From: a virus | Lineage: Duplodnaviria > Heunggongvirae > Uroviricota > Caudoviricetes | IMG/VR virus record: IMGVR_UViG_2654587568_000008 | Location: 1-6,553 of that record | Length of the DNA stretch: 6,553 nt | Strand: one strand, 5' to 3' | Part shown: positions 1 through 6,553 of the stretch, one piece after another | Layout of the letters: every line of letters starts with the position of its first letter | How positions within the stretch are numbered: position 1 is the stretch's first letter | Position numbers and translations under genes: made by a program | Notes under the pieces: generated by a model | Seen by the model: the letters and a program-made list of their open reading frames with translations, nothing else | Databases searched by the model: none | Told to the model about the DNA's origin: nothing

Positions 1-928
1 GGATTGGATTAGGTTTAATAACATACCTATAATGTTCAGTCATGAGATATCAAGAATAAATGCTACGCCTGGTAACGTTCTTCTACAGAGCACCTCTGCT
101 TTTCCGCGCGTTTTAGTAAAAGCATCTGAGTTGAGAAAGGTTTTAGTTATACGTTCTTTTGAGCCTGATGATCACTTAAAGTTCATATTAGAGAACGCAA
201 TTGAGATATTTAAAAAACAGATGCCAGATCTTGATTGCGAGATTATTGATGTTAGATCGAAAGCTGAGTTTATTGATGCTCTAAATCAATATCAAGGTCA
301 TATTCTTGTTATGGATTGTCATGGAAACCATGATGGCAATGGGAGTCATGGATGGTTAATAATAGGTGAGGATAAAGTGGACACTTGGAGTTTGAGAAAA
401 ATAGCAAGAATTCCTCCTATCGTAATTCTGAGTGCATGTTTAACATCTGCCCTAAGTGGTTCTCATGCCTCTGTTGCTAATGGCTTCGTTATAAGTGGTG
501 CATTAAGTGTCATCGGAACATTACTGCCTGTAAATGCGATAGACTCTGCTATTTTTGTAAGTCGGTTGATCTACCGGTTTTACGAGTTTCCTTCGACGCT
601 ATCTACAAATTTTACACATGTTAATGTAAGGCTTTTTCTTTCTGTTTTTCTTAGGATGTCCTATGCAAGCGATTTAATAAGAGGATTTTTATCTGAAGAT
701 TTGATACCGAATAATTCATGGAAGAAAGATGCAGTTGACATTAACATGTATATAAACATGCTTCACCATGATTGGTATGATTATGTAATTAACAAATTGA
801 CGATGTTAACGGGGCTCACGAAAAAAGATGTACTTGATTTTATCGATAGAAAATTATTCATAACCGAAACTATGTGCTATAGCCAAATTGGATTTCCAGA
901 TGCAATCACAATTAGTCTTAAAGATTGA
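1..928 (+). CDS. CHAT/caspase-like (His-Cys dyad) protease-domain protein, probably 5'-partial (reading frame open from window edge; first in-window ATG at 32; stop TGA 926-928)
   Basis: Frame beginning at nt 2 has no stop before ATG 32, so the ORF may continue upstream, and there is no Shine-Dalgarno before ATG 32. Translation contains ...HILVMDCHGNHDGNG... (His-Gly), about 40 residues later ...PPIVILSACLTSALSG... (Cys), then ...ANGFVISGALSVIGTLLPVNAIDSAIF..., the layout of the CHAT/caspase catalytic core. The gene is much more AT-rich than the rest of the window. Family call is by eye, not HMM. Confidence 0.6.
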   Translation, partial: DWIRFNNIPIMFSHEISRINATPGNVLLQSTSAFPRVLVKASELRKVLVIRSFEPDDHLKFILENAIEIFKKQMPDLDCEIIDVRSKAEFIDALNQYQGHILVMDCHGNHDGNGSHGWLIIGEDKVDTWSLRKIARIPPIVILSACLTSALSGSHASVANGFVISGALSVIGTLLPVNAIDSAIFVSRLIYRFYEFPSTLSTNFTHVNVRLFLSVFLRMSYASDLIRGFLSEDLIPNNSWKKDAVDINMYINMLHHDWYDYVINKLTMLTGLTKKDVLDFIDRKLFITETMCYSQIGFPDAITISLKD

Positions 929-959
929 CAACTGTATGTAATAAATATGGCATACTTCC

Positions 960-1000
960 GGCACAGAGCGAATATAACAGATCAGGTTTAGCTCTGTGCC
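960..1000. repeat. Perfect 10-bp inverted repeat GGCACAGAGC (960-969) / GCTCTGTGCC (991-1000) with 21-nt spacer, between convergent genes at the GC-content boundary
   Basis: Arms are exact reverse complements. No U/T tract follows on either strand, so it is not a classic intrinsic terminator. Confidence 0.7.
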
Positions 1001-1035
1001 ATAGGTGTACCAACTCTCATCTGAGCTAATGCTCG

Positions 1036-1230
1036 TTACTCAATAACTCCCGCAAATTTGTAAATCTTGCGTGATGCCCATTTATTTGGGCATGATTTAA
1101 TATCAGGATCTGGAAAGTCTGGCCTGTATTTCTGGCCAGTTCTCCTGTTTACGCTGTTCCAGCGAAGAACTGTCGATACTGAAACTCCACAGAAGTTGGC
1201 GACTTGTTTAGTTGTCATTAAGTTGTTCAT
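1036..1230 (-). CDS. Small DNA-binding protein, excisionase/AlpA-like (Xis family), 64 aa
   Basis: ATG at 1228-1230 is preceded by GGAGG with 7-nt spacing. Stop TAA at 1036-1038. Product MNNLMTTKQVANFCGVSVSTVLRW...FPDPDIK...KW has the winged-helix pattern of phage Xis/AlpA proteins. Its start overlaps the upstream gene's stop by 1 nt (TAATG). Confidence 0.7.
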   Translation of the reverse strand: MNNLMTTKQVANFCGVSVSTVLRWNSVNRRTGQKYRPDFPDPDIKSCPNKWASRKIYKFAGVIE

Positions 1231-1850
1231 TACTTTACCTCCTGCGGCGGCTCCGGTAGCGGCATCCAGTGGGTTACTTTCGATGCCGGTTCTTCCACAT
1301 CGTCAGTAACTGCCCACCATTTGTTTCTCGACCAATCGTAATACCCTTCGAAGGTATCGCACTCAGTCCAGCCGTAAGACTTCCCCCAACACCAAACATA
1401 CTGTTTATCGTTCGGCATTCGCTCACTACAGCTTATCCAACCATCCGGAGTTACCGGAGAGTTGCCCGACAGCTCGTTCAACTTGTAAGTCTGGCTTACA
1501 GGTTTGGCACCATGAAGCATGGCGGCGCGGCAGGCGTTCCAGCCTTCATCAAAGCCGACTATGCCATTATTTAAAGACGGAAGAGCATCCGGCACCACCG
1601 ACACTGGCTGAGCCATATATAGCGGCTGAACATACCAGCCCTTTGATAACCAACTGTCAGCAATGTTTTTGCTCCTGGTTATTGCCGGAATACCTAAGCC
1701 ATTGTCTGAATGAAGCCACGCCACCGGCTCTGCTTCCAGTGATGCCAGAGCAATTTCATAAGCAAGGCGCTCAACATTGTCTCGCACGTCTAGGCTGCCG
1801 ATTCGTTCTTTGATTTCTTTAATCTGTTCCTTATCGGTGTAAGTGGTCAT
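1230..1850 (-). CDS. yfdT: DUF551-domain prophage protein (Eaa/YfdT-like), 206 aa
   Basis: ORF with ATG at 1848-1850 overlapping the upstream stop (TAATG). C-terminus ...WISCSERMP...VWCWGKSYGW...KVTHWMPLPEPP is the DUF551 signature as I recall it. Position after yfdS matches the K-12 yfdQ-R-S-T order. The symbol is by synteny and memory and is less certain than for yfdQ/yfdR. Confidence 0.7.
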   Translation of the reverse strand: MTTYTDKEQIKEIKERIGSLDVRDNVERLAYEIALASLEAEPVAWLHSDNGLGIPAITRSKNIADSWLSKGWYVQPLYMAQPVSVVPDALPSLNNGIVGFDEGWNACRAAMLHGAKPVSQTYKLNELSGNSPVTPDGWISCSERMPNDKQYVWCWGKSYGWTECDTFEGYYDWSRNKWWAVTDDVEEPASKVTHWMPLPEPPQEVK

Positions 1851-2212
1851 TATGCTCCAGCCTCCGGTGCTTTTGGCATTACTGCCCAGTGAGTGATATT
1901 AATATTTTCAAGGTCCCCGATCTGAAATGTCCACTGCCATTCTCCGGTTTCTTTTTGTCCCCAGGTGTACCAGAGAGAACGCCAGCCAATCAGCCAGCCT
2001 TCTCCGTTAGCATCAAATAACAGAACACTTTCATTTGCTGGTGGCAGTTCAACTGATACTGGTATTACTTTGTTTTCCTGTGCTGCACATTTAGCTTCAA
2101 GCGCATCGAATTTACGCACCAGGTATTCAGCATCCGTTTCATTCACTTTCAGGTCTCGTGGTACACATCTCCCGTGAAGAAACCCTTCCATTTCGAAAAC
2201 ATTCATGCGCAT
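1850..2212 (-). CDS. yfdS: DUF551-domain prophage protein YfdS, 120 aa
   Basis: ATG at 2210-2212 with GGAG 8 nt upstream. Stop TAA at 1850-1852. C-terminus ...GWLIGW...WYTWGQ...NITHWAVMPKAPE is DUF551-like. It overlaps the yfdR stop by 10 nt. Length and position match K-12 YfdS from memory. Confidence 0.75.
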   Translation of the reverse strand: MRMNVFEMEGFLHGRCVPRDLKVNETDAEYLVRKFDALEAKCAAQENKVIPVSVELPPANESVLLFDANGEGWLIGWRSLWYTWGQKETGEWQWTFQIGDLENINITHWAVMPKAPEAGA

Positions 2213-2739
2213 TTGCGTAACTCCGATAACTCGTTAAAACGTTCCATAAACATCCCGTAGGCATGGCCCGGAGCCAGTGGAATAACTTTGAACATCTCTG
2301 TTGTCGGGATACCTTCCAGTACTGGCCAGAAAGAGCCATCATCAAGCCCGAGATCGCGGCGTTCAGTTGCCAGCATGATGAGATCGGCATATTTCACAGG
2401 CGTGCTCATAACCGGGGGTAACCCGTATTTCTCACGGATTACGGCGTCTATTTTTTCTTCCATCCGTTTATAGTCAGGAAGAAGGCGTTTCAGTGGAGCG
2501 GGGATGTCCTGACAATACGCTTCTGTTGCATCATGCATTAACGCTTCAAAAGCAAATTCCTGCGGCACCAGCTGGCTGCAAAGCACCGCATGCTGGGCGA
2601 CACTGTAGAAGTGTGAAAGATGTCCTGCAAAGCGACAGATATTTGAAAGGGAAACTGCGATATCGTTAATCACGATGTCGTCTTTATTTATCTTGTCATA
2701 ATAAAAATGCTTCCCGGAAAAAGTTTTAATAAATGACAT
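2203..2739 (-). CDS. yfdR: HD-domain phosphohydrolase (5'-deoxynucleotidase-type) YfdR, 178 aa; start at ATG 2737-2739 rather than the track's GTG at 2751
   Basis: HD motif H...HD...D is visible (FAGHLSHFYSVAQHAV...ALMHDATEAYCQD). ATG at 2737-2739 is preceded by GGAG with 6-nt spacer, while the track's first codon at 2749-2751 is GTG. The resulting 178-aa length and its position between yfdQ and yfdS match K-12 YfdR from memory. Confidence 0.8.
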   Translation of the reverse strand: MSFIKTFSGKHFYYDKINKDDIVINDIAVSLSNICRFAGHLSHFYSVAQHAVLCSQLVPQEFAFEALMHDATEAYCQDIPAPLKRLLPDYKRMEEKIDAVIREKYGLPPVMSTPVKYADLIMLATERRDLGLDDGSFWPVLEGIPTTEMFKVIPLAPGHAYGMFMERFNELSELRKCA

Positions 2740-2832
2740 TTCGTTCTCCACTTTATATGCGCTGCACCGCGCTGAATTCTGCTAAAAGGAAGCTCTCACC
2801 ATCCGGTGATTATTGAGTTAATTACGTTTCCA

Positions 2833-2856
2833 TAAATGCCCCCGCAGGGGCATTTG
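2833..2856 (-). terminator. GC-rich palindromic hairpin AAATGCCCC-cgca-GGGGCATTT in the yfdQ-yfdR intergenic gap; candidate intra-operon terminator or attenuator (possibly bidirectional)
   Basis: 9-bp perfect stem (2834-2842 / 2847-2855) with 4-nt loop, U-rich at the 3' side of the stem on both strands. It lies in the 116-bp gap between the yfdQ stop (2868) and the yfdR start (2739). Confidence 0.45.
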
Positions 2857-2867
2857 CAGTAATGAAA

Positions 2868-3692
2868 TCAGGCGGTGAAAGTACCAATAAAGGTTTCTAC
2901 TTTGCTGTCTTTGAATTTCTCAACAAGCAGATCACGAAATTCGTTAGCCATTTCTTCCTGCATCGCTTCCAGCTGAATAATGCGCAGAACCAGTACAGGA
3001 CGATCGCCAGTGATAATGCTGAGGCGTAATTTAAACGGACGTTCTTTCAGGCCTTCAAACGGAACGCATTTAAATTCAAATGCCACTGGCATAATGTCTT
3101 TGGTTTTCGCTTCGACAGACTCCATCAGGGAGCGTTTGCCGCTGAAGTCATTGTCTTCAAAATCAGCGGTCTGGTTTGCTTCAATTGTGATTTTACGGAC
3201 TGCCGCAGCCGCTTTGGTTGCCTGAATGGTGTCACCATTAGCATCAAAGCCCACAAGGTAGTCGGCCCAGTCTTCAATCCATTCTGCCAGTGACTTCTGG
3301 GAGTTACGCTCGCCATTAACAGACAACAGAGCAGAAAACGGTGCTGTCTTTTTCAGTTTGAGGGTGGCGGTGTTATCTGCGTGACCTGGTTCATCAATAG
3401 TACCCAGGTTAAGCACACTGACGGCTCGCATATTATCGGCATCGATAAAGCAGCGGGTGCCTTCATCTGCAAGATCTTTAGAATAACGGGTAAAGTCATC
3501 GATGCTGGCAGTGGAAAGCGCACCACGGAAACGGAAGCGATTTAAATTAAATTTTTCCAGATCATGAATGCGGAAATTCTCAGGCAATGCCACAGCATCG
3601 GCACCAATCTTACTGATAATTTCATTAACACCCTGAGCAGAAATAAGGGCATGGATTTGATTAATTGCGGTTGCGTCTAAGTTCTGAGACAT
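2868..3692 (-). CDS. yfdQ: Prophage protein YfdQ (DUF2303 family, function unknown), 274 aa
   Basis: ATG at 3690-3692 is preceded by GAGGA with 6-nt spacer. Stop at 2868-2870. No recognisable catalytic motif. The 274-aa length and position upstream of yfdR match K-12 YfdQ from memory. Confidence 0.8.
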
Positions 3693-3757
3693 AATAAGTC
3701 CTCACTATATAAAGATATTCAGTGATGAGATAAATAATCAGTTAATTAAGAACGATA

Positions 3758-4120
3758 TTAATGACCTGCTGCGCGGAGTTTTCCGTCAGGTTCACCGGCA
3801 AGAGTCAGTAATTGTCCCTGGTCTTCCTGCAGAATAGTCAGGCGACCACCGCGATTGACATACATCGGCGTTTCGGTGGTGTCTTCTTCGGAAATTTTCC
3901 CGCGGTTAGTCGGGCGAACATATGAGAGTTTGTGTTTTATTTTCACACGGTTCTCATCAAACGGTTCGATTTCCAGGTTGAGCGAGACCTTACCTTTGGT
4001 TTTCGTGTTCATCACACCGGAAGCGACTTCACTGAGAACTGCGCCGATTTTGGTTTCAAATACGCCGCCGTCCAGCTCCCCGATAAATGCCTGCACATCA
4101 GTACTGCGTTCGCTAGCCAT
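3758..4120 (-). CDS. yfdP: Prophage protein YfdP-like, 120 aa (true start ATG 4118-4120; the track's 197-aa ORF starting at 4351 is an over-extension)
   Basis: Internal ATG at 4118-4120 (MASERSTDVQ...) is preceded by GAGGAG with 7-nt spacer. The upstream 77 codons translate to a Cys/Arg/His/Pro-rich, non-protein-like sequence and overlap strong RNA hairpins. The 120-aa length matches K-12 YfdP from memory. Confidence 0.7.
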   Translation of the reverse strand: MASERSTDVQAFIGELDGGVFETKIGAVLSEVASGVMNTKTKGKVSLNLEIEPFDENRVKIKHKLSYVRPTNRGKISEEDTTETPMYVNRGGRLTILQEDQGQLLTLAGEPDGKLRAAGH

Positions 4121-4168
4121 TTTGCTGCTCCTCATCATATCGACCCTGCAAGGTCGGTTGGTTTCTCC

Positions 4169-4257
4169 ACAAAACAGAGAAGAACACCTGCGGTGGCAGC
4201 CGCCCGGATGGATTGGGTTATGAGCCCGTCGTCCGGTGATGCTCTTCTCTGTTTTGT
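4169..4257 (-). repeat. 15-bp perfect inverted repeat ACAAAACAGAGAAGA (4169-4183) / TCTTCTCTGTTTTGT (4243-4257) enclosing a 59-nt GC-rich, internally structured loop; long stem-loop in the yfdP 5' leader
   Basis: Arms are exact reverse complements. The loop contains further short hairpins (GCGG/CCGC 4190-4203, GGGTT/GAGCCC 4215-4227). It sits between the DicF-like terminator and the yfdP ribosome-binding site. Confidence 0.6.
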
Positions 4258-4325
4258 AAAAAGAGCGGTACCAGCCGGAAGCAAGTGTACAAACTGGTAC
4301 CGCCAAAGCAGTGGCTGTTGTGGTG
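4258..4325 (-). ncRNA. Candidate DicF-like prophage sRNA with its intrinsic terminator (stem GCGGTACCAG / CTGGTACCGC at 4265-4303, then TCTTTTT)
   Basis: Minus-strand sequence ...CUGCUUUGGCGGUACCAGUUUGUACACUUGCUUCCGGCUGGUACCGCUCUUUUU resembles the E. coli DicF core as I recall it (UUUGGCGGUAUCAGUUUUAC...GCCGCCCUUUUU). A 10-bp GC-rich stem followed by a U tract is directly visible. Location in the early-left leader of a lambdoid immunity region parallels dicF in Qin. Not confirmed by covariance search. Confidence 0.4.
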
Positions 4326-4714
4326 GGGTTGTCACTCAGGCGTATGGTCAACCTGACAATCCGGTGTCCTCAACGGGGAAAGAGTAACCCCGCCATACTT
4401 ACCGCCGCGCCATTTCGCGGATTACCACAACGCTGAGAGCACTTAGCCAGTTACGGCACCACACTTTGTCGCGGCTCCATAAATGCCCTCATCGTTGCAC
4501 CCTGGTCTCTTCCCAGGCGTCAAACCGAATCGCCACGCTGGTTAGGCGTCTTATCAGCATCATCATTGACTTGCACATTCCGGCTACCTGGTTTGTTTGC
4601 CCGAGCAAGGAGTGGATTGTCCCCTTTAACGTCCCCAGACCGCTAACGACGCATGTGCCATACGCCGTGTTACAACCAAATTTTGTTAGTACCTTGTTTG
4701 TAGGTCTGGAAAGA

Positions 4715-4767
4715 AAGATAAAATGAAGTTGCGCATTATGCAAGTGTTTTTATTGCGAGATATGCAA
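4715..4767 (-). promoter_or_regulatory. Candidate OL/PL: two 15-bp operator sites TTGCGCATTATGCAA (4729-4743) and TTGCGAGATATGCAA (4753-4767), centres 24 bp apart, overlapping a candidate leftward promoter
   Basis: Both sites share TTGC-N7-GCAA with the OR site at 5537-5551. Minus-strand -35-like TTGCAT (4738-4743) and -10-like TATCTT (4715-4720) with 17-bp spacing are weak. An alternative -10 CATAAT (4735-4740) has poor -35 spacing. Confidence 0.45.
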
Positions 4768-4777
4768 TTTGATGGGT

Positions 4778-4802
4778 AATGAAAAGCCACCTTCTGGTGG
4801 CT
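4778..4802 (-). terminator. Intrinsic terminator downstream of cI (stem AGCCACC/GGTGGCT, loop TTCT, followed by TTTCATT on the minus strand)
   Basis: 7-bp stem (4785-4791 / 4796-4802) with 4-nt loop and a U-rich tail, located 22 bp past the cI stop codon. Confidence 0.55.
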
Positions 4803-4823
4803 AATTGATGTTGAGGTAGGGGG

Positions 4824-5516
4824 TTAATTGTGTCGCTTAAGGGTTTGTGACTGACTGATTAAGACCTTTCCAAAGACCATAAACCGGTGTTCGTTTTCGC
4901 TGGTAATTCCCCATTCGCGGTAAATCTGATTATCAGAAATTACCAGCAGTTTATCAGGTATCATTTGCAGTCGTTTGACGTAAATTTTATCATCAAAACC
5001 AAATACATATATACCATCCCCATCAAACTGATTGATACTGATATCAACGAAGATGAGATCTCCTGGCTCAATGGTTGGACACATACTGTCCCCACGAACG
5101 TTGATAACTTTAATGTGATTTGCTGGTCGTCCACCAAACATCGATACAGCATTATCAGTTCTGTATTCAATGGCATGAATCACATCAATGACATCACCGC
5201 CCTGGATAAGGCCATTTCCCGCACTGGCACTGACATCCAGCATTTCAATACGGAATACATCCTTCACCTGCGCAACATCCTCACTAATACTGTTTTTACA
5301 TACAGTATTACTTTTGAGGTCTGAGGTAAAGAGATCAGCAATATCAACACCTAAGCTCCTGGCAATATTACTCAGGGCTTGTTCAGTGAATTGTTTCTGC
5401 TTACCTGTTTCGAGGCGCGAGATATTCGCCGCATCCACTCCTATTGCTTCAGCGAGATCGGCGATTTTCATGTTCTTCGCCTGGCGAAGTTGTCTGACTC
5501 GATTTCCTATGTTCAT
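4824..5516 (-). CDS. cI: CI-type prophage repressor: N-terminal XRE-family helix-turn-helix plus C-terminal LexA-like S24 peptidase domain, 230 aa
   Basis: N-terminus ...MKIADLAEAIGVDAANISRLETGK is a helix-turn-helix. C-terminus carries the GDSM serine motif (VRGDSMCPTIEPGD) and a downstream lysine (IYVKRL) as in LexA/lambda CI, with a candidate Ala-Gly cleavage site (SASAGNG). Divergent from the Cro-like gene. Confidence 0.9.
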   Translation of the reverse strand: MNIGNRVRQLRQAKNMKIADLAEAIGVDAANISRLETGKQKQFTEQALSNIARSLGVDIADLFTSDLKSNTVCKNSISEDVAQVKDVFRIEMLDVSASAGNGLIQGGDVIDVIHAIEYRTDNAVSMFGGRPANHIKVINVRGDSMCPTIEPGDLIFVDISINQFDGDGIYVFGFDDKIYVKRLQMIPDKLLVISDNQIYREWGITSENEHRFMVFGKVLISQSQTLKRHN

Positions 5517-5613
5517 GCGTTTATTACATTTCTTTATTGCGCGTTAAGCAAATCAACTTGCGCAAAATATTTGCGTGAAATAATATGCTCATCACGCAAT
5601 ATGTGGAGGTTAT
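5517..5613. promoter_or_regulatory. OR/PR/PRM divergent control region with repeated TTGCG half-sites
   Basis: TTGCG occurs at 5537, 5558 and 5571, CGCAA at 5561 and 5595. 15-bp site TTGCGCGTTAAGCAA (5537-5551). Palindromes TTGCGCAA (5558-5565), CGCAAA-ATA-TTTGCG (5561-5575) and TTGCGTGA...TCACGCAA (5571-5578 / 5592-5599). Candidate PR: -35 TTGCGC (5558-5563), 17-bp spacer, -10 TAATAT (5581-5586). Candidate PRM (minus strand): -35 TTGCTT (5546-5551), 17-bp spacer, -10 TGTAAT (5523-5528). GGAGG at 5605-5609 precedes the cro ATG. Confidence 0.6.
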
Positions 5614-5874
5614 ATGCAATCACCATTACGGAATGTGCGTAAGGCGCACGGATTTACTTTGCAGCATGTTGCTGCGGGCGTTCAGGTCAATCCAGCGACG
5701 CTGAGTCGTATTGAAAGACTGGAACAAATTCCATCTATCGATCTTGCAGAACGTCTGGCCAATTTTTTTAAGGGTGAAATCAGCGAAATGCAGATTCTTT
5801 ATCCGGCACGTTTTCAATCTAGCCAAAACCAGAATGGGTTTAAACCACAGGAACAGGAGGTAAGCCGTGGGTAA
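5614..5874 (+). CDS. cro: Cro-like helix-turn-helix regulator (XRE family), 86 aa
   Basis: ATG at 5614 with GGAGG 4 nt upstream. Helix-turn-helix ...FTLQHVAAGVQVNPATLSRIERLEQIPS. Divergent from cI across the operator region. Stop TAA at 5872-5874. Confidence 0.85.
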   Translation: MQSPLRNVRKAHGFTLQHVAAGVQVNPATLSRIERLEQIPSIDLAERLANFFKGEISEMQILYPARFQSSQNQNGFKPQEQEVSRG

Positions 5875-6418
5875 GCATCACTGGAAAGTGGAAAAACAAC
5901 CTGAGTGGCACGTGAAAGCTGTCAGAAAAACTATCGCGGCATTGCCTGGGGGTTACGCTGAAGCTGCTGACTGGCTGGATGTAACAGAGAACGCTTTATT
6001 CAACCGCCTTCGTGCAGATGGCGATCAGATTTTCCCGCTGGGATGGGCAATGGTTTTACAGCGCGCGGCTGGCACTCACTACATTGCGGATGCTGTCGCA
6101 CAGTCTGCTGGTGGGGTGTTCGTATCGCTTCCTGAAATTGAGGAAGTAGAGAACGCCGATATAAACCAGCGCCTGCTGGAAGTCATCGAACAGATCGGGA
6201 ATTACTCAAAGCAGATTCGTTCGGCAATCGAAGATGGGGTCGTGGAGCCACACGAGCAGACAGCAATTAATGATGAGTTGTATCTGTCAATTTCGAAGCT
6301 CCAGGAACATGCAGCACTGGTCTACAAAATCTTCTGCGCTCCAGAAAAGAGTGACGCCCGCGAGTGTGCAGCTCCGGGCGTCGTGGCGTTTTGTGTCTGT
6401 GGAGAAACTAACGCATGA
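5867..6418 (+). CDS. CII-like / YdaT-type prophage regulatory protein (putative), 183 aa, GTG start, translationally coupled to cro
   Basis: GTG at 5867-5869 is preceded by AGGAGG (5855-5860) and overlaps the cro stop (GTGGGTAA). Possible helix-turn-helix ...GYAEAADWLDVTENALFNRL. Position immediately after cro is typical of CII/YdaT-like regulators. Family assignment is by position and memory only. Confidence 0.7.
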   Translation: MGKHHWKVEKQPEWHVKAVRKTIAALPGGYAEAADWLDVTENALFNRLRADGDQIFPLGWAMVLQRAAGTHYIADAVAQSAGGVFVSLPEIEEVENADINQRLLEVIEQIGNYSKQIRSAIEDGVVEPHEQTAINDELYLSISKLQEHAALVYKIFCAPEKSDARECAAPGVVAFCVCGETNA

Positions 6419-6553
6419 ACAGTTTAACGGCAAATAACCGTTTGTCGCAACAGCTTGTATGGGTCCACCACATATTGCAATTTTTATTCTCTTTTAAAAT
6501 ATATTCCACGGGCGTCATTAGTGCGAGCGCCTTGTGGGGTCTTTTGCTGTTAT
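6415..6553 (+). CDS. Start of a further ORF, 3'-truncated by the window end, coupled to the upstream gene by an ATGA overlap; function unknown
   Basis: ATG at 6415-6417 overlaps the TGA stop at 6416-6418. GGAGAAA lies 7 nt upstream. Frame is open for 46 codons to the window end (MNSLTANNRLSQQLVWVHHILQF...). The AT-rich stretch 6470-6510 could instead be non-coding. Confidence 0.3.
   Translation, partial: MNSLTANNRLSQQLVWVHHILQFLFSFKIYSTGVISASALWGLLLL

Follow-up and report, generated by a model that had tools for sequence, protein, structure and literature searches.

A conserved yfdP–yfdQ cassette in the early-left operon of an Escherichia coli lambdoid prophage, with a possible role in DNA replication or repair

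We analysed a 6,553-nt stretch of DNA (positions 1 to 6,553 of the IMG/VR virus record IMGVR_UViG_2654587568_000008; hereafter, the window), a 6.5 kb left arm of the immunity and early region of an Escherichia coli lambdoid prophage, with a focus on two adjacent minus-strand genes, yfdP and yfdQ. Comparison of homologous loci shows that the unit of inheritance is yfdP–yfdQ plus a closing hairpin. In our reading, the cassette is both passed on and exchanged whole between the early, DNA-metabolism regions of unrelated Proteobacteria phages, temperate and virulent alike. We tentatively propose that YfdP and YfdQ constitute a two-protein accessory complex acting on DNA replication or repair. An initial annotation of this DNA had described the pair as a conserved unit of unknown function and a candidate recombination, host-takeover, or counter-defence module; its observation is confirmed by the results below, and its interpretation is partly supported.

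The pairing of the two genes was assessed at one locus per species in 71 genomes encoding a YfdQ relative (41–99% identity), a sample spanning Escherichia to Proteus, Xenorhabdus, and Hahella. In 69 of the 71 loci, the gene directly upstream of yfdQ, in the same orientation, encoded a YfdP homologue; the other two were yfdQ fragments missing their 5′ part. Similar numbers were obtained from 50,697 phage records, of which 179 encode YfdQ and 180 encode YfdP, with identical breakdowns by taxon; wherever a record listed the coordinates of both genes, they were adjacent, with yfdP upstream. This order was kept in the CP2-like Xanthomonas phage MET23-P3, Vibrio phage VvAW1, Psychrobacter phage Psymv2, Stutzerimonas (Pseudomonas) phage PG1, the 82-kb Acinetobacter phage fJoAci01, the Shiga toxin (Stx)-type phage ArgO145, and prophages of Pseudomonas and Marinobacter, all of which otherwise share nothing with the window prophage. 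The window has the same arrangement, with a YfdP-like gene just upstream of a DUF2303 gene, on the same strand and separated by a 65-nt spacer, and short spacing is common to all homologous loci. The expectation that the two genes would co-occur across genomes as one conserved, uncharacterised unit was thus borne out, with near-absolute pairing and the same order in unrelated phages.

Divergence of the two proteins was also correlated, with a Mantel rho of 0.66 between the YfdP and YfdQ distance matrices, versus 0.49 and 0.41 in comparisons with YfdR. The yfdR gene is a frequent, non-universal third member of the cluster: it follows yfdQ in 58 of the 71 enterobacterial loci, but in none of the distant phages that were inspected. 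As it occurs only in Enterobacterales, the idea of a conserved third gene was rejected; in other lineages, the genes 3′ of yfdQ were unrelated to YfdR and largely unrelated to each other. Of 5426 complete E. coli genomes, 2722 (about half) carry the window allele, with up to seven copies per genome. The initial annotation had placed the pair in KpLE1-type prophages, where it does occur, but this description is too narrow, given its presence in about half of complete E. coli genomes and in phages of many Gammaproteobacteria. A leading-region context on conjugative plasmids was essentially absent, and the 23 plasmid records carrying the pair were mostly phage-like or mislabelled chromosomes.

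The cassette closes with a GC-rich stem-loop downstream of yfdQ (z-score of −2.1 versus shuffled sequences), and in 57 of 61 distinct homologous loci a hairpin of ≤ −15 kcal/mol was found at the same position, within 70 nt. Stem sequences vary by genus (AAAUGCCCC/GGGGCAUUU, AAUUGCCCUG/CGGGGCAAUU, AAAUCCCCGG/CGGGGAUUU, and AAGCGUCGU/GCGGCGCUU), and such covarying differences between genera indicate that it is the structure that is conserved, not the sequence. The hairpin takes the form of a canonical intrinsic terminator, U-tract included, in VvAW1, fJoAci01, and Hahella, and strong GC hairpins follow yfdQ in the Pseudomonas, Marinobacter, and Psychrobacter relatives. The copy in the window has no U-tract and precedes yfdR; it could serve as a leaky terminator, a 3′-end stabiliser, or a processing site dividing yfdPQ from yfdR. 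Conservation of a hairpin after yfdQ is in line with the yfdPQ transcription unit used in work on E. coli K-12 (PMC9181523).

The names given to the two genes were upheld by family assignments. YfdQ matches PF10065 (DUF2303) over its full length (E = 8.3e-92; 307.7 bits versus a cut-off of 26.6), with residues 7–272 aligning to profile positions 2–269 of 269, and it also matches phrog_210 (E = 7e-120). YfdP matches phrog_204 (E = 1.2e-49) and belongs to PF27127 (‘YfdP’) according to the precomputed annotation of near-identical homologues, which covers the 99%-identical cluster representative (P0121) and all 120 homologues listed. Both genes are under purifying selection, with a median dN/dS of 0.12 among orthologues for each. 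The YfdQ family comprises 1778 clusters at 50% identity (E ≤ 0.001), 936 of which reach 1e-30. Among its best 150 representatives, length is uniform (265–288 amino acids, bar a few shorter partial sequences) and domain fusions are absent. Rare E. coli proteins carrying both YfdP and YfdQ domains are single-member clusters, ~97–99% identical to the query over the covered part, and are probably frameshift or deletion artefacts. Homology between YfdP and YfdQ themselves was rejected (hhalign probability 0.2%).

YfdQ has a mass of 30.5 kDa and an isoelectric point (pI) of 5.0; DNA mimicry was considered and rejected, as the protein is merely mildly acidic. Near-invariant polar residues in 131 diverse homologues are E46, R56, T61, Y70, H104, Q132, E140, D141, R166, and R223, with H104 located in an FNLG-x4-PGHAD loop. 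The AlphaFold2 model of YfdQ (predicted local distance difference test score, pLDDT, 77; predicted template modelling score, pTM, 0.62) suggests an N-terminal helix followed by alpha/beta units, with the conserved, Arg-rich RxRFRG segment (51–55) and D-F-S-G-K-R-S loop (173–191) falling into its low-confidence parts. For YfdP (pLDDT 68), a long N-terminal helix (9–39) followed by a three-stranded beta-meander (44–82) is predicted; its most conserved segment, the C-terminal tail (approximately residues 70–105, PTxRGKxSEEDTTETPMYV..GG.LT), is of low confidence and predicted to be disordered when the protein is modelled alone. Conserved segments that are modelled with low confidence are a common pattern for interface or ligand-binding segments.

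Homologue alignments fix the start of yfdP at position 4120 (MASERSTDV...), and a 197-amino acid open reading frame reaching position 4351 is an upstream read-through of this gene that is not conserved as protein. Beyond the true start, this reading frame (3758–4351, minus strand) continues upstream without a stop for another 77 codons. Database entries for YfdP of 138–199 amino acids exist and probably reflect a mis-called start.

Neither protein had shown a recognisable motif on first reading, and searches of Pfam, NCBIfam, PADLOC, and Protein Data Bank (PDB) sequences and folds agree: in Pfam, NCBIfam, PADLOC, and PHROGs, both had only matches to DUF families or families of unknown function, and PADLOC gave no match at E ≤ 0.1 for YfdP, YfdQ, YfdR, YfdS, or the DUF551 protein. 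Fold searches with the YfdP and YfdQ models, against a PDB library running to 8 April 2026 and without entry 9o7m, revealed no resemblance to any characterised family. The pair showed no sequence or fold homology to single-strand annealing proteins (RecT/Redbeta, Erf, Rad52/Sak, Sak4), exonucleases, or single-stranded DNA-binding (SSB) protein families, nor to Gam or Abc2 (Pfam and fold searches). Anti-defence proteins such as Ocr, ArdA, Tad, Acb, and Gad likewise showed no similarity in Pfam or the PDB, the search having included no dedicated anti-defence library. A type II toxin–antitoxin pair was rejected on the lack of matches to toxin or antitoxin families (Pfam, NCBIfam, PADLOC) and the location of the pair downstream of repressor operators; the available parts of two reports on plasmid overproduction of YfdQ mention no toxicity (PMC4776307; bioRxiv 10.1101/413146). 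The claim that the pair has no homology to a characterised family therefore holds. As for the label ‘uncharacterised’, it is right in that there are no characterised relatives, but both proteins are Pfam families, and the structure of a homologue has been deposited.

This structure, PDB 9o7m (‘YfdQ Protein’), is the only solved relative and the sole match when PDB sequences were searched with phmmer and profile hmmsearch (E = 1.4e-44 by sequence, 4e-89 by family profile). It is a full-length DUF2303 homologue, sharing ~38% identity with YfdQ and 98.8% with the DUF2303 protein encoded by MET23-P3. The entry holds 36 YfdQ chains, which suggests a large oligomer or many copies. The MET23-P3 YfdP homologue and 25 other early or neighbouring proteins of that phage had no PDB match and corresponded to no chain of 9o7m. 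Our literature search found no paper for 9o7m, and a cryo-electron microscopy (cryo-EM) preprint on the CP2-like phage Xacm4-11 lists other PDB codes and never mentions the yfdQ gene. The entry is probably the quickest route to YfdQ function.

The position of the pair had been read as that of the first two genes behind the leader of the leftward promoter (PL), and this is supported by a terminator-like hairpin after cI and by two exact palindromes (TTGC-N7-GCAA) that mark a putative left operator (OL). The motif recurs in the cI–cro spacer, the putative right operator (OR), once exactly and once with one mismatched base; the window has three exact copies in total, each within one of the two regions where operators are expected. 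A weak PL-like promoter (TTGCAT-17-TATCTT, minus strand), read by eye, overlaps the left operator pair; the automatic promoter scan did not call it. Because of the hairpin, the operator palindromes with their recurrence in OR, and the weak promoter match, we place a putative PL here and take yfdP and yfdQ to be the first genes behind its leader, an assignment made from sequence features. In the RefSeq/PGAP annotation of a 97.5% identical E. coli chromosome, no coding sequence is annotated between yfdP and the repressor gene, and no dedicated promoter upstream of yfdP was evident in the window.

Published work offers several points of contact. Zheng, Casjens, Davidson, Amundsen, and Smith (Genome Res 2025, PMC12315714) describe a yfbR/yfdR–yfdQ–yfdP cluster in phages LLS, ST64B, and phiNP, and regard yfdP and yfdQ as common members of the early-left region whose function is not known. 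Noguchi and Katayama (2016, PMC4776307) found that multicopy yfdQRST suppresses over-initiation and inhibits initiation at oriC, that this inhibition needs yfdQ, and that YfdR binds DnaA; they also cite increased sensitivity of a K-12 yfdQ deletion to methyl methanesulfonate (MMS) and H2O2. According to a preprint (bioRxiv 10.1101/413146), YfdQ production triggers plaques of a second phage in strain BW25113. In Burkholderia phage JC1, the DUF2303 protein gp10 was detected in caesium chloride (CsCl)-purified virions (five unique peptides, 21.6% coverage), and its authors proposed that gp10 rides on the DNA and protects its ends like T4 gp2 (PMC9144972). In growing K-12, yfdPQ is transcribed, and the yfdO/yfdP spacer is the strongest binding site of the regulator SrsR (PMC9181523); K-12 SrsR boxes were not present in the window.

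On these grounds, our tentative proposal can be spelled out. The cassette (small gene, short spacer, DUF2303 gene, and closing hairpin) would be transcribed from PL at the onset of lytic growth, and an oligomeric YfdQ would be joined by its small partner YfdP, perhaps through the conserved tail of the latter, into a complex acting early in infection on intermediates of host or phage DNA replication or repair. Its role would be an accessory DNA transaction or interference with host replication, rather than that of an annealing recombinase, an exonuclease, or a RecBCD inhibitor. That the two proteins act together is suggested by their obligate pairing, fixed order, and correlated divergence, and by the conserved segments that appear disordered in monomer models; the 36-chain 9o7m entry is compatible with a large YfdQ oligomer. 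A replication or repair target is suggested by the yfdQ phenotypes, by the detection of JC1 gp10 in virions and its proposed association with DNA, and by RecT, exonuclease, SSB, and HD-nucleotidase neighbours in five lineages. These include RecT and an exonuclease just upstream of the cassette in ArgO145, a recombinase, exonuclease, and SSB downstream of it in MET23-P3, exonucleases and SSB beside it in VvAW1, and RecT and YqaJ near it in JC1. Strong conservation, uniform length, and the lack of fusions are typical of a core-like activity rather than of an arms-race protein.

A number of points weigh against this proposal. Binding of YfdP to YfdQ, and of the pair to DNA, is something we infer, and the monomer models behind part of the argument are of moderate confidence (pLDDT 77 and 68). 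Evidence from gene neighbourhoods is weak, since early operons are full of DNA-metabolism genes anyway, and no gene around the pair is conserved from lineage to lineage. The phenotypes stem from overexpression or from a decayed prophage. In PMC4776307, yfdP was dispensable for inhibition of initiation, the only mapped cellular phenotype; pull-downs gave no tight binding of YfdQ to YfdR or DnaA; and the authors themselves allow that overexpression may have produced an artefact.

The main rival is a counter-defence module, in which the pair, expressed first after PL, would inhibit or evade an immune system as a signal sponge or inhibitor complex. We consider this unlikely, if plausible enough to be weighed seriously. 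Its place as the first expressed unit of the early-left operon would suit such a function, as would the moron-like make-up of a cassette with its own closing hairpin and patchy spread across unrelated phages, the lack of housekeeping homologues, and the many chains of 9o7m, which fit an oligomeric sponge equally well. However, neither protein resembles anti-defence proteins in Pfam or in the PDB by sequence or fold, the literature searched gave no experimental hint, and the pair is nearly absent from plasmids. Strong purifying selection, uniform length, and wide spread are also unlike most anti-defence genes, which evolve fast and have narrow ranges. Counter-defence and host takeover, both named in the initial annotation, may yet be roles of the pair; the sole experimental link is inhibition of host replication initiation on overexpression, dependent on yfdQ and independent of yfdP (PMC4776307). 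The detection of JC1 gp10 in purified virions (PMC9144972) raises a further option, that YfdQ binds DNA ends and travels with the genome, or acts in packaging or injection, shielding these ends from exonucleases. The gene's location in lambda's Gam slot and the origin of the solved homologue from a CP2-like Xanthomonas podovirus agree with this, but the JC1 detection is a single low-abundance proteomics match, the cryo-EM paper on Xacm4-11 gives the gene no structural role, lambdoid yfdQ lies in the early-left operon, distant from the late genes, and RecBCD still acts productively on the DNA of LLS, which carries yfdQ (PMC12315714). We regard a virion-borne end protein as improbable.

It is highly doubtful that the cassette mainly serves the lysogen, as a moron conferring tolerance to alkylation or oxidative stress or controlling other prophages, rather than lytic growth. 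The MMS and H2O2 sensitivity of the K-12 deletion and the second-phage plaques in BW25113 (PMC4776307 and bioRxiv 10.1101/413146, respectively) point that way, together with transcription in growing K-12, binding by the host regulator SrsR (PMC9181523), and the hairpin that closes the cassette. Expression in K-12 is unrepresentative, however, given that its CPS-53 prophage has lost the immunity region; the window prophage has the pair behind the operators, where it would be silenced in a lysogen, and lacks SrsR boxes; virulent-type phages (CP2-like, VvAW1) carry the pair as well. Cryptic recombination, with YfdQ as annealase or mediator, or a Gam-like pair inhibiting RecBCD, was already disfavoured and strikes us as very unlikely. 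The pair does sit where lambda encodes Gam, Bet, and Exo, it is repeatedly found beside RecT, exonuclease, and SSB genes, and the 36 chains of 9o7m recall ring- or filament-forming annealases. Against the recombination role suggested by the initial annotation, Zheng et al. considered hidden recombination proteins in the cluster unlikely because it also occurs with complete, separate Rec modules (PMC12315714), and we confirmed such co-occurrence in ArgO145 and MET23-P3. The suggested inhibition of RecBCD fares no better: LLS carries yfdP, yfdQ, and yfdR homologues, and its growth is still helped by RecBCD and oriented Chi sites (PMC12315714), which argues against a Gam-like inhibitor, as does the lack of Gam or Abc2 homology. 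Returning to the complex acting on DNA that we favour, a bolder version, a hitherto unrecognised type of two-component phage machine, would have a large YfdQ oligomer and a small adaptor binding DNA ends, forks, or origins and being co-packaged in some phages, or else a neutraliser of a host immune or repair pathway with a new fold; we see these bolder forms as somewhat unlikely.

Table 1 Features of the 6,553-nt window (position 1 is its first letter)
Feature	Position	Strand	Remarks
CHAT-domain gene, 3′ end	32–928	plus	Gene begins before the window
Excisionase gene	1036–1230	minus	
DUF551 gene	1230–1850	minus	206 amino acids
DUF551 gene	1850–2212	minus	
Chi site (GCTGGTGG)	2037–2044	plus	
yfdR	2203–2739	minus	HD-domain 5′-deoxynucleotidase
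Closing stem-loop	2834–2855	minus	AAAUGCCCC-UGCG-GGGGCAUUU; 9-bp GC-rich stem, 13 nt after the yfdQ stop
yfdQ	2868–3692	minus	274 amino acids
yfdP–yfdQ spacer	3693–3757	minus	65 nt, AT-rich; includes a GTGAGGA Shine–Dalgarno sequence before the yfdQ ATG
yfdP	3758–4120	minus	120 amino acids
yfdP Shine–Dalgarno sequence	4127–4132	minus	GAGGAG, 6 nt upstream of the ATG; read from sequence
Untranslated leader	4121–4728	minus	~600 nt, between the putative PL and yfdP
Structured-RNA-like leader element	~4504–4681	minus	~180 nt, non-coding
Unannotated stretch	between the cI-like repressor gene and yfdP		~700 nt
Putative OL	4729–4743, 4753–4767		Two exact TTGC-N7-GCAA palindromes, 24 bp apart
Terminator-like hairpin	4785–4802		After cI
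cI-like repressor gene	4824–5516	minus	Helix-turn-helix (HTH)/S24; divergent from the cro-like and cII-like genes
Putative OR, exact palindrome	5537–5551		In the cI–cro spacer
Putative OR, one-mismatch copy	5585–5599		In the cI–cro spacer
cro-like gene	5614–5874	plus	
cII-like gene	5867–6418	plus	
Chi site (GCTGGTGG)	6107–6114	plus	

The window contains the whole early-left operon (Table 1), and its genes match exactly the RefSeq/PGAP annotation of the 97.5% identical chromosome. Strain GPEC389 is 97.5% identical to the window over 99% of its length, and at least 80% of the window is present in 117 complete genomes. No annealase, exonuclease, SSB, Gam/Abc2, or N gene was recognisable in the early-left operon with Pfam and PHROGs. 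At the left edge, the C-terminal 298 amino acids of a CHAT-domain protein of ~710 amino acids are encoded, with matches to the PADLOC candidate defence protein ‘BovA’ (PDLC03831, E = 7e-139) and to phrog_34827. The two consecutive DUF551 genes overlap through an ATGA start/stop and encode acidic proteins (pI 4.8 for both); the longer seems to correspond to full-length K-12 YfdT, whose annotated product is shorter and truncated. Both Chi sites of this prophage arm, which has no Rec module, lie on the plus strand and may have a bearing on the ‘no Rec module, high Chi’ class reported by Zheng et al. (2025).

Within the leader, the structured-RNA-like element is 79–83% identical to unannotated DNA of unrelated phages. 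The P1 copy directly follows tRNA-Ile2 on its 3′ side and lies 5′ of ban; the element is also found in phiV10 (intergenic), D6, SJ46, SPN9TCW, and Klebsiella phages, and a 22-nt core occurs on more than 100 viral contigs. RNAalifold analysis of eight variants predicted a multi-helix structure with compensatory changes, including a covarying hairpin (CCUGG/CCAGG, CCUCG/CGAGG, and GCCGG/CCGGC), and folding of the single sequence was unexceptional (z-score of 0.1). The element had no Rfam match and is no tRNA, and an HK022 put-like site was rejected, as no similarity to the HK022 immunity region was found. The element might represent a phage RNA not described so far, with a possible link to read-through in a prophage without an N gene.

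The genes and the question of what they do are already known from the literature, where both are catalogued as families of unknown function. The cassette is among the commonest phage gene pairs in E. coli, and the DUF2303 family spans ~1800 clusters at 50% identity. The function of the cassette, once known, would fill a gap in how such phages begin lytic growth and might explain the K-12 phenotypes, namely inhibition of replication initiation, MMS and H2O2 sensitivity, and control of another prophage. Strict pairing, the closing hairpin, and a solved structure make the problem tractable, and its significance would grow should YfdP and YfdQ turn out to form a novel type of complex, either associated with DNA or serving immune evasion.

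Among known systems, the closest is the K-12 prophage CPS-53/KpLE1, whose YfdP and YfdQ are essentially the same proteins, 99% identical to cluster representatives named ‘protein YfdP’ and ‘YfdQ family protein’, and whose genes follow the same order (yfdP–yfdQ–yfdR, then DUF551 genes). The window differs in that its cassette lies in a seemingly intact immunity region (cI, cro, cII, operators, and leader), whereas K-12 lost that region and gained SrsR boxes upstream of yfdP. The same yfdR/yfdQ/yfdP cluster is found in LLS (gp37–gp39), ST64B (gp35–gp37), phiNP, and SfV (orf29–31); in the lambdoid phages of the LLS/ST64B type, which likewise have no Rec module, its position is the same, although the alleles are more distant (YfdP ~58–63% identity). 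These phages are propagative and, for that reason, natural experimental systems. The source phage of 9o7m likewise has a YfdP-like gene before its DUF2303 gene, but it is a podovirus with the pair upstream of a recombinase–exonuclease–SSB module, unlike the window. With lambda Gam, Bet, Exo, Ral, Kil, and CIII, the pair shares position and timing (early, PL-driven, non-essential accessory genes) without sequence or fold similarity to these early-left proteins; unlike the lambda genes of this slot, it co-occurs with Rec modules and is compatible with active RecBCD. Like phage morons, finally, the yfdP–yfdQ cassette is self-contained, with a conserved closing hairpin and many unrelated genomic backgrounds, but in contrast to these independent promoter–gene–terminator insertions, it has no evident promoter of its own and sits inside a repressed early operon.

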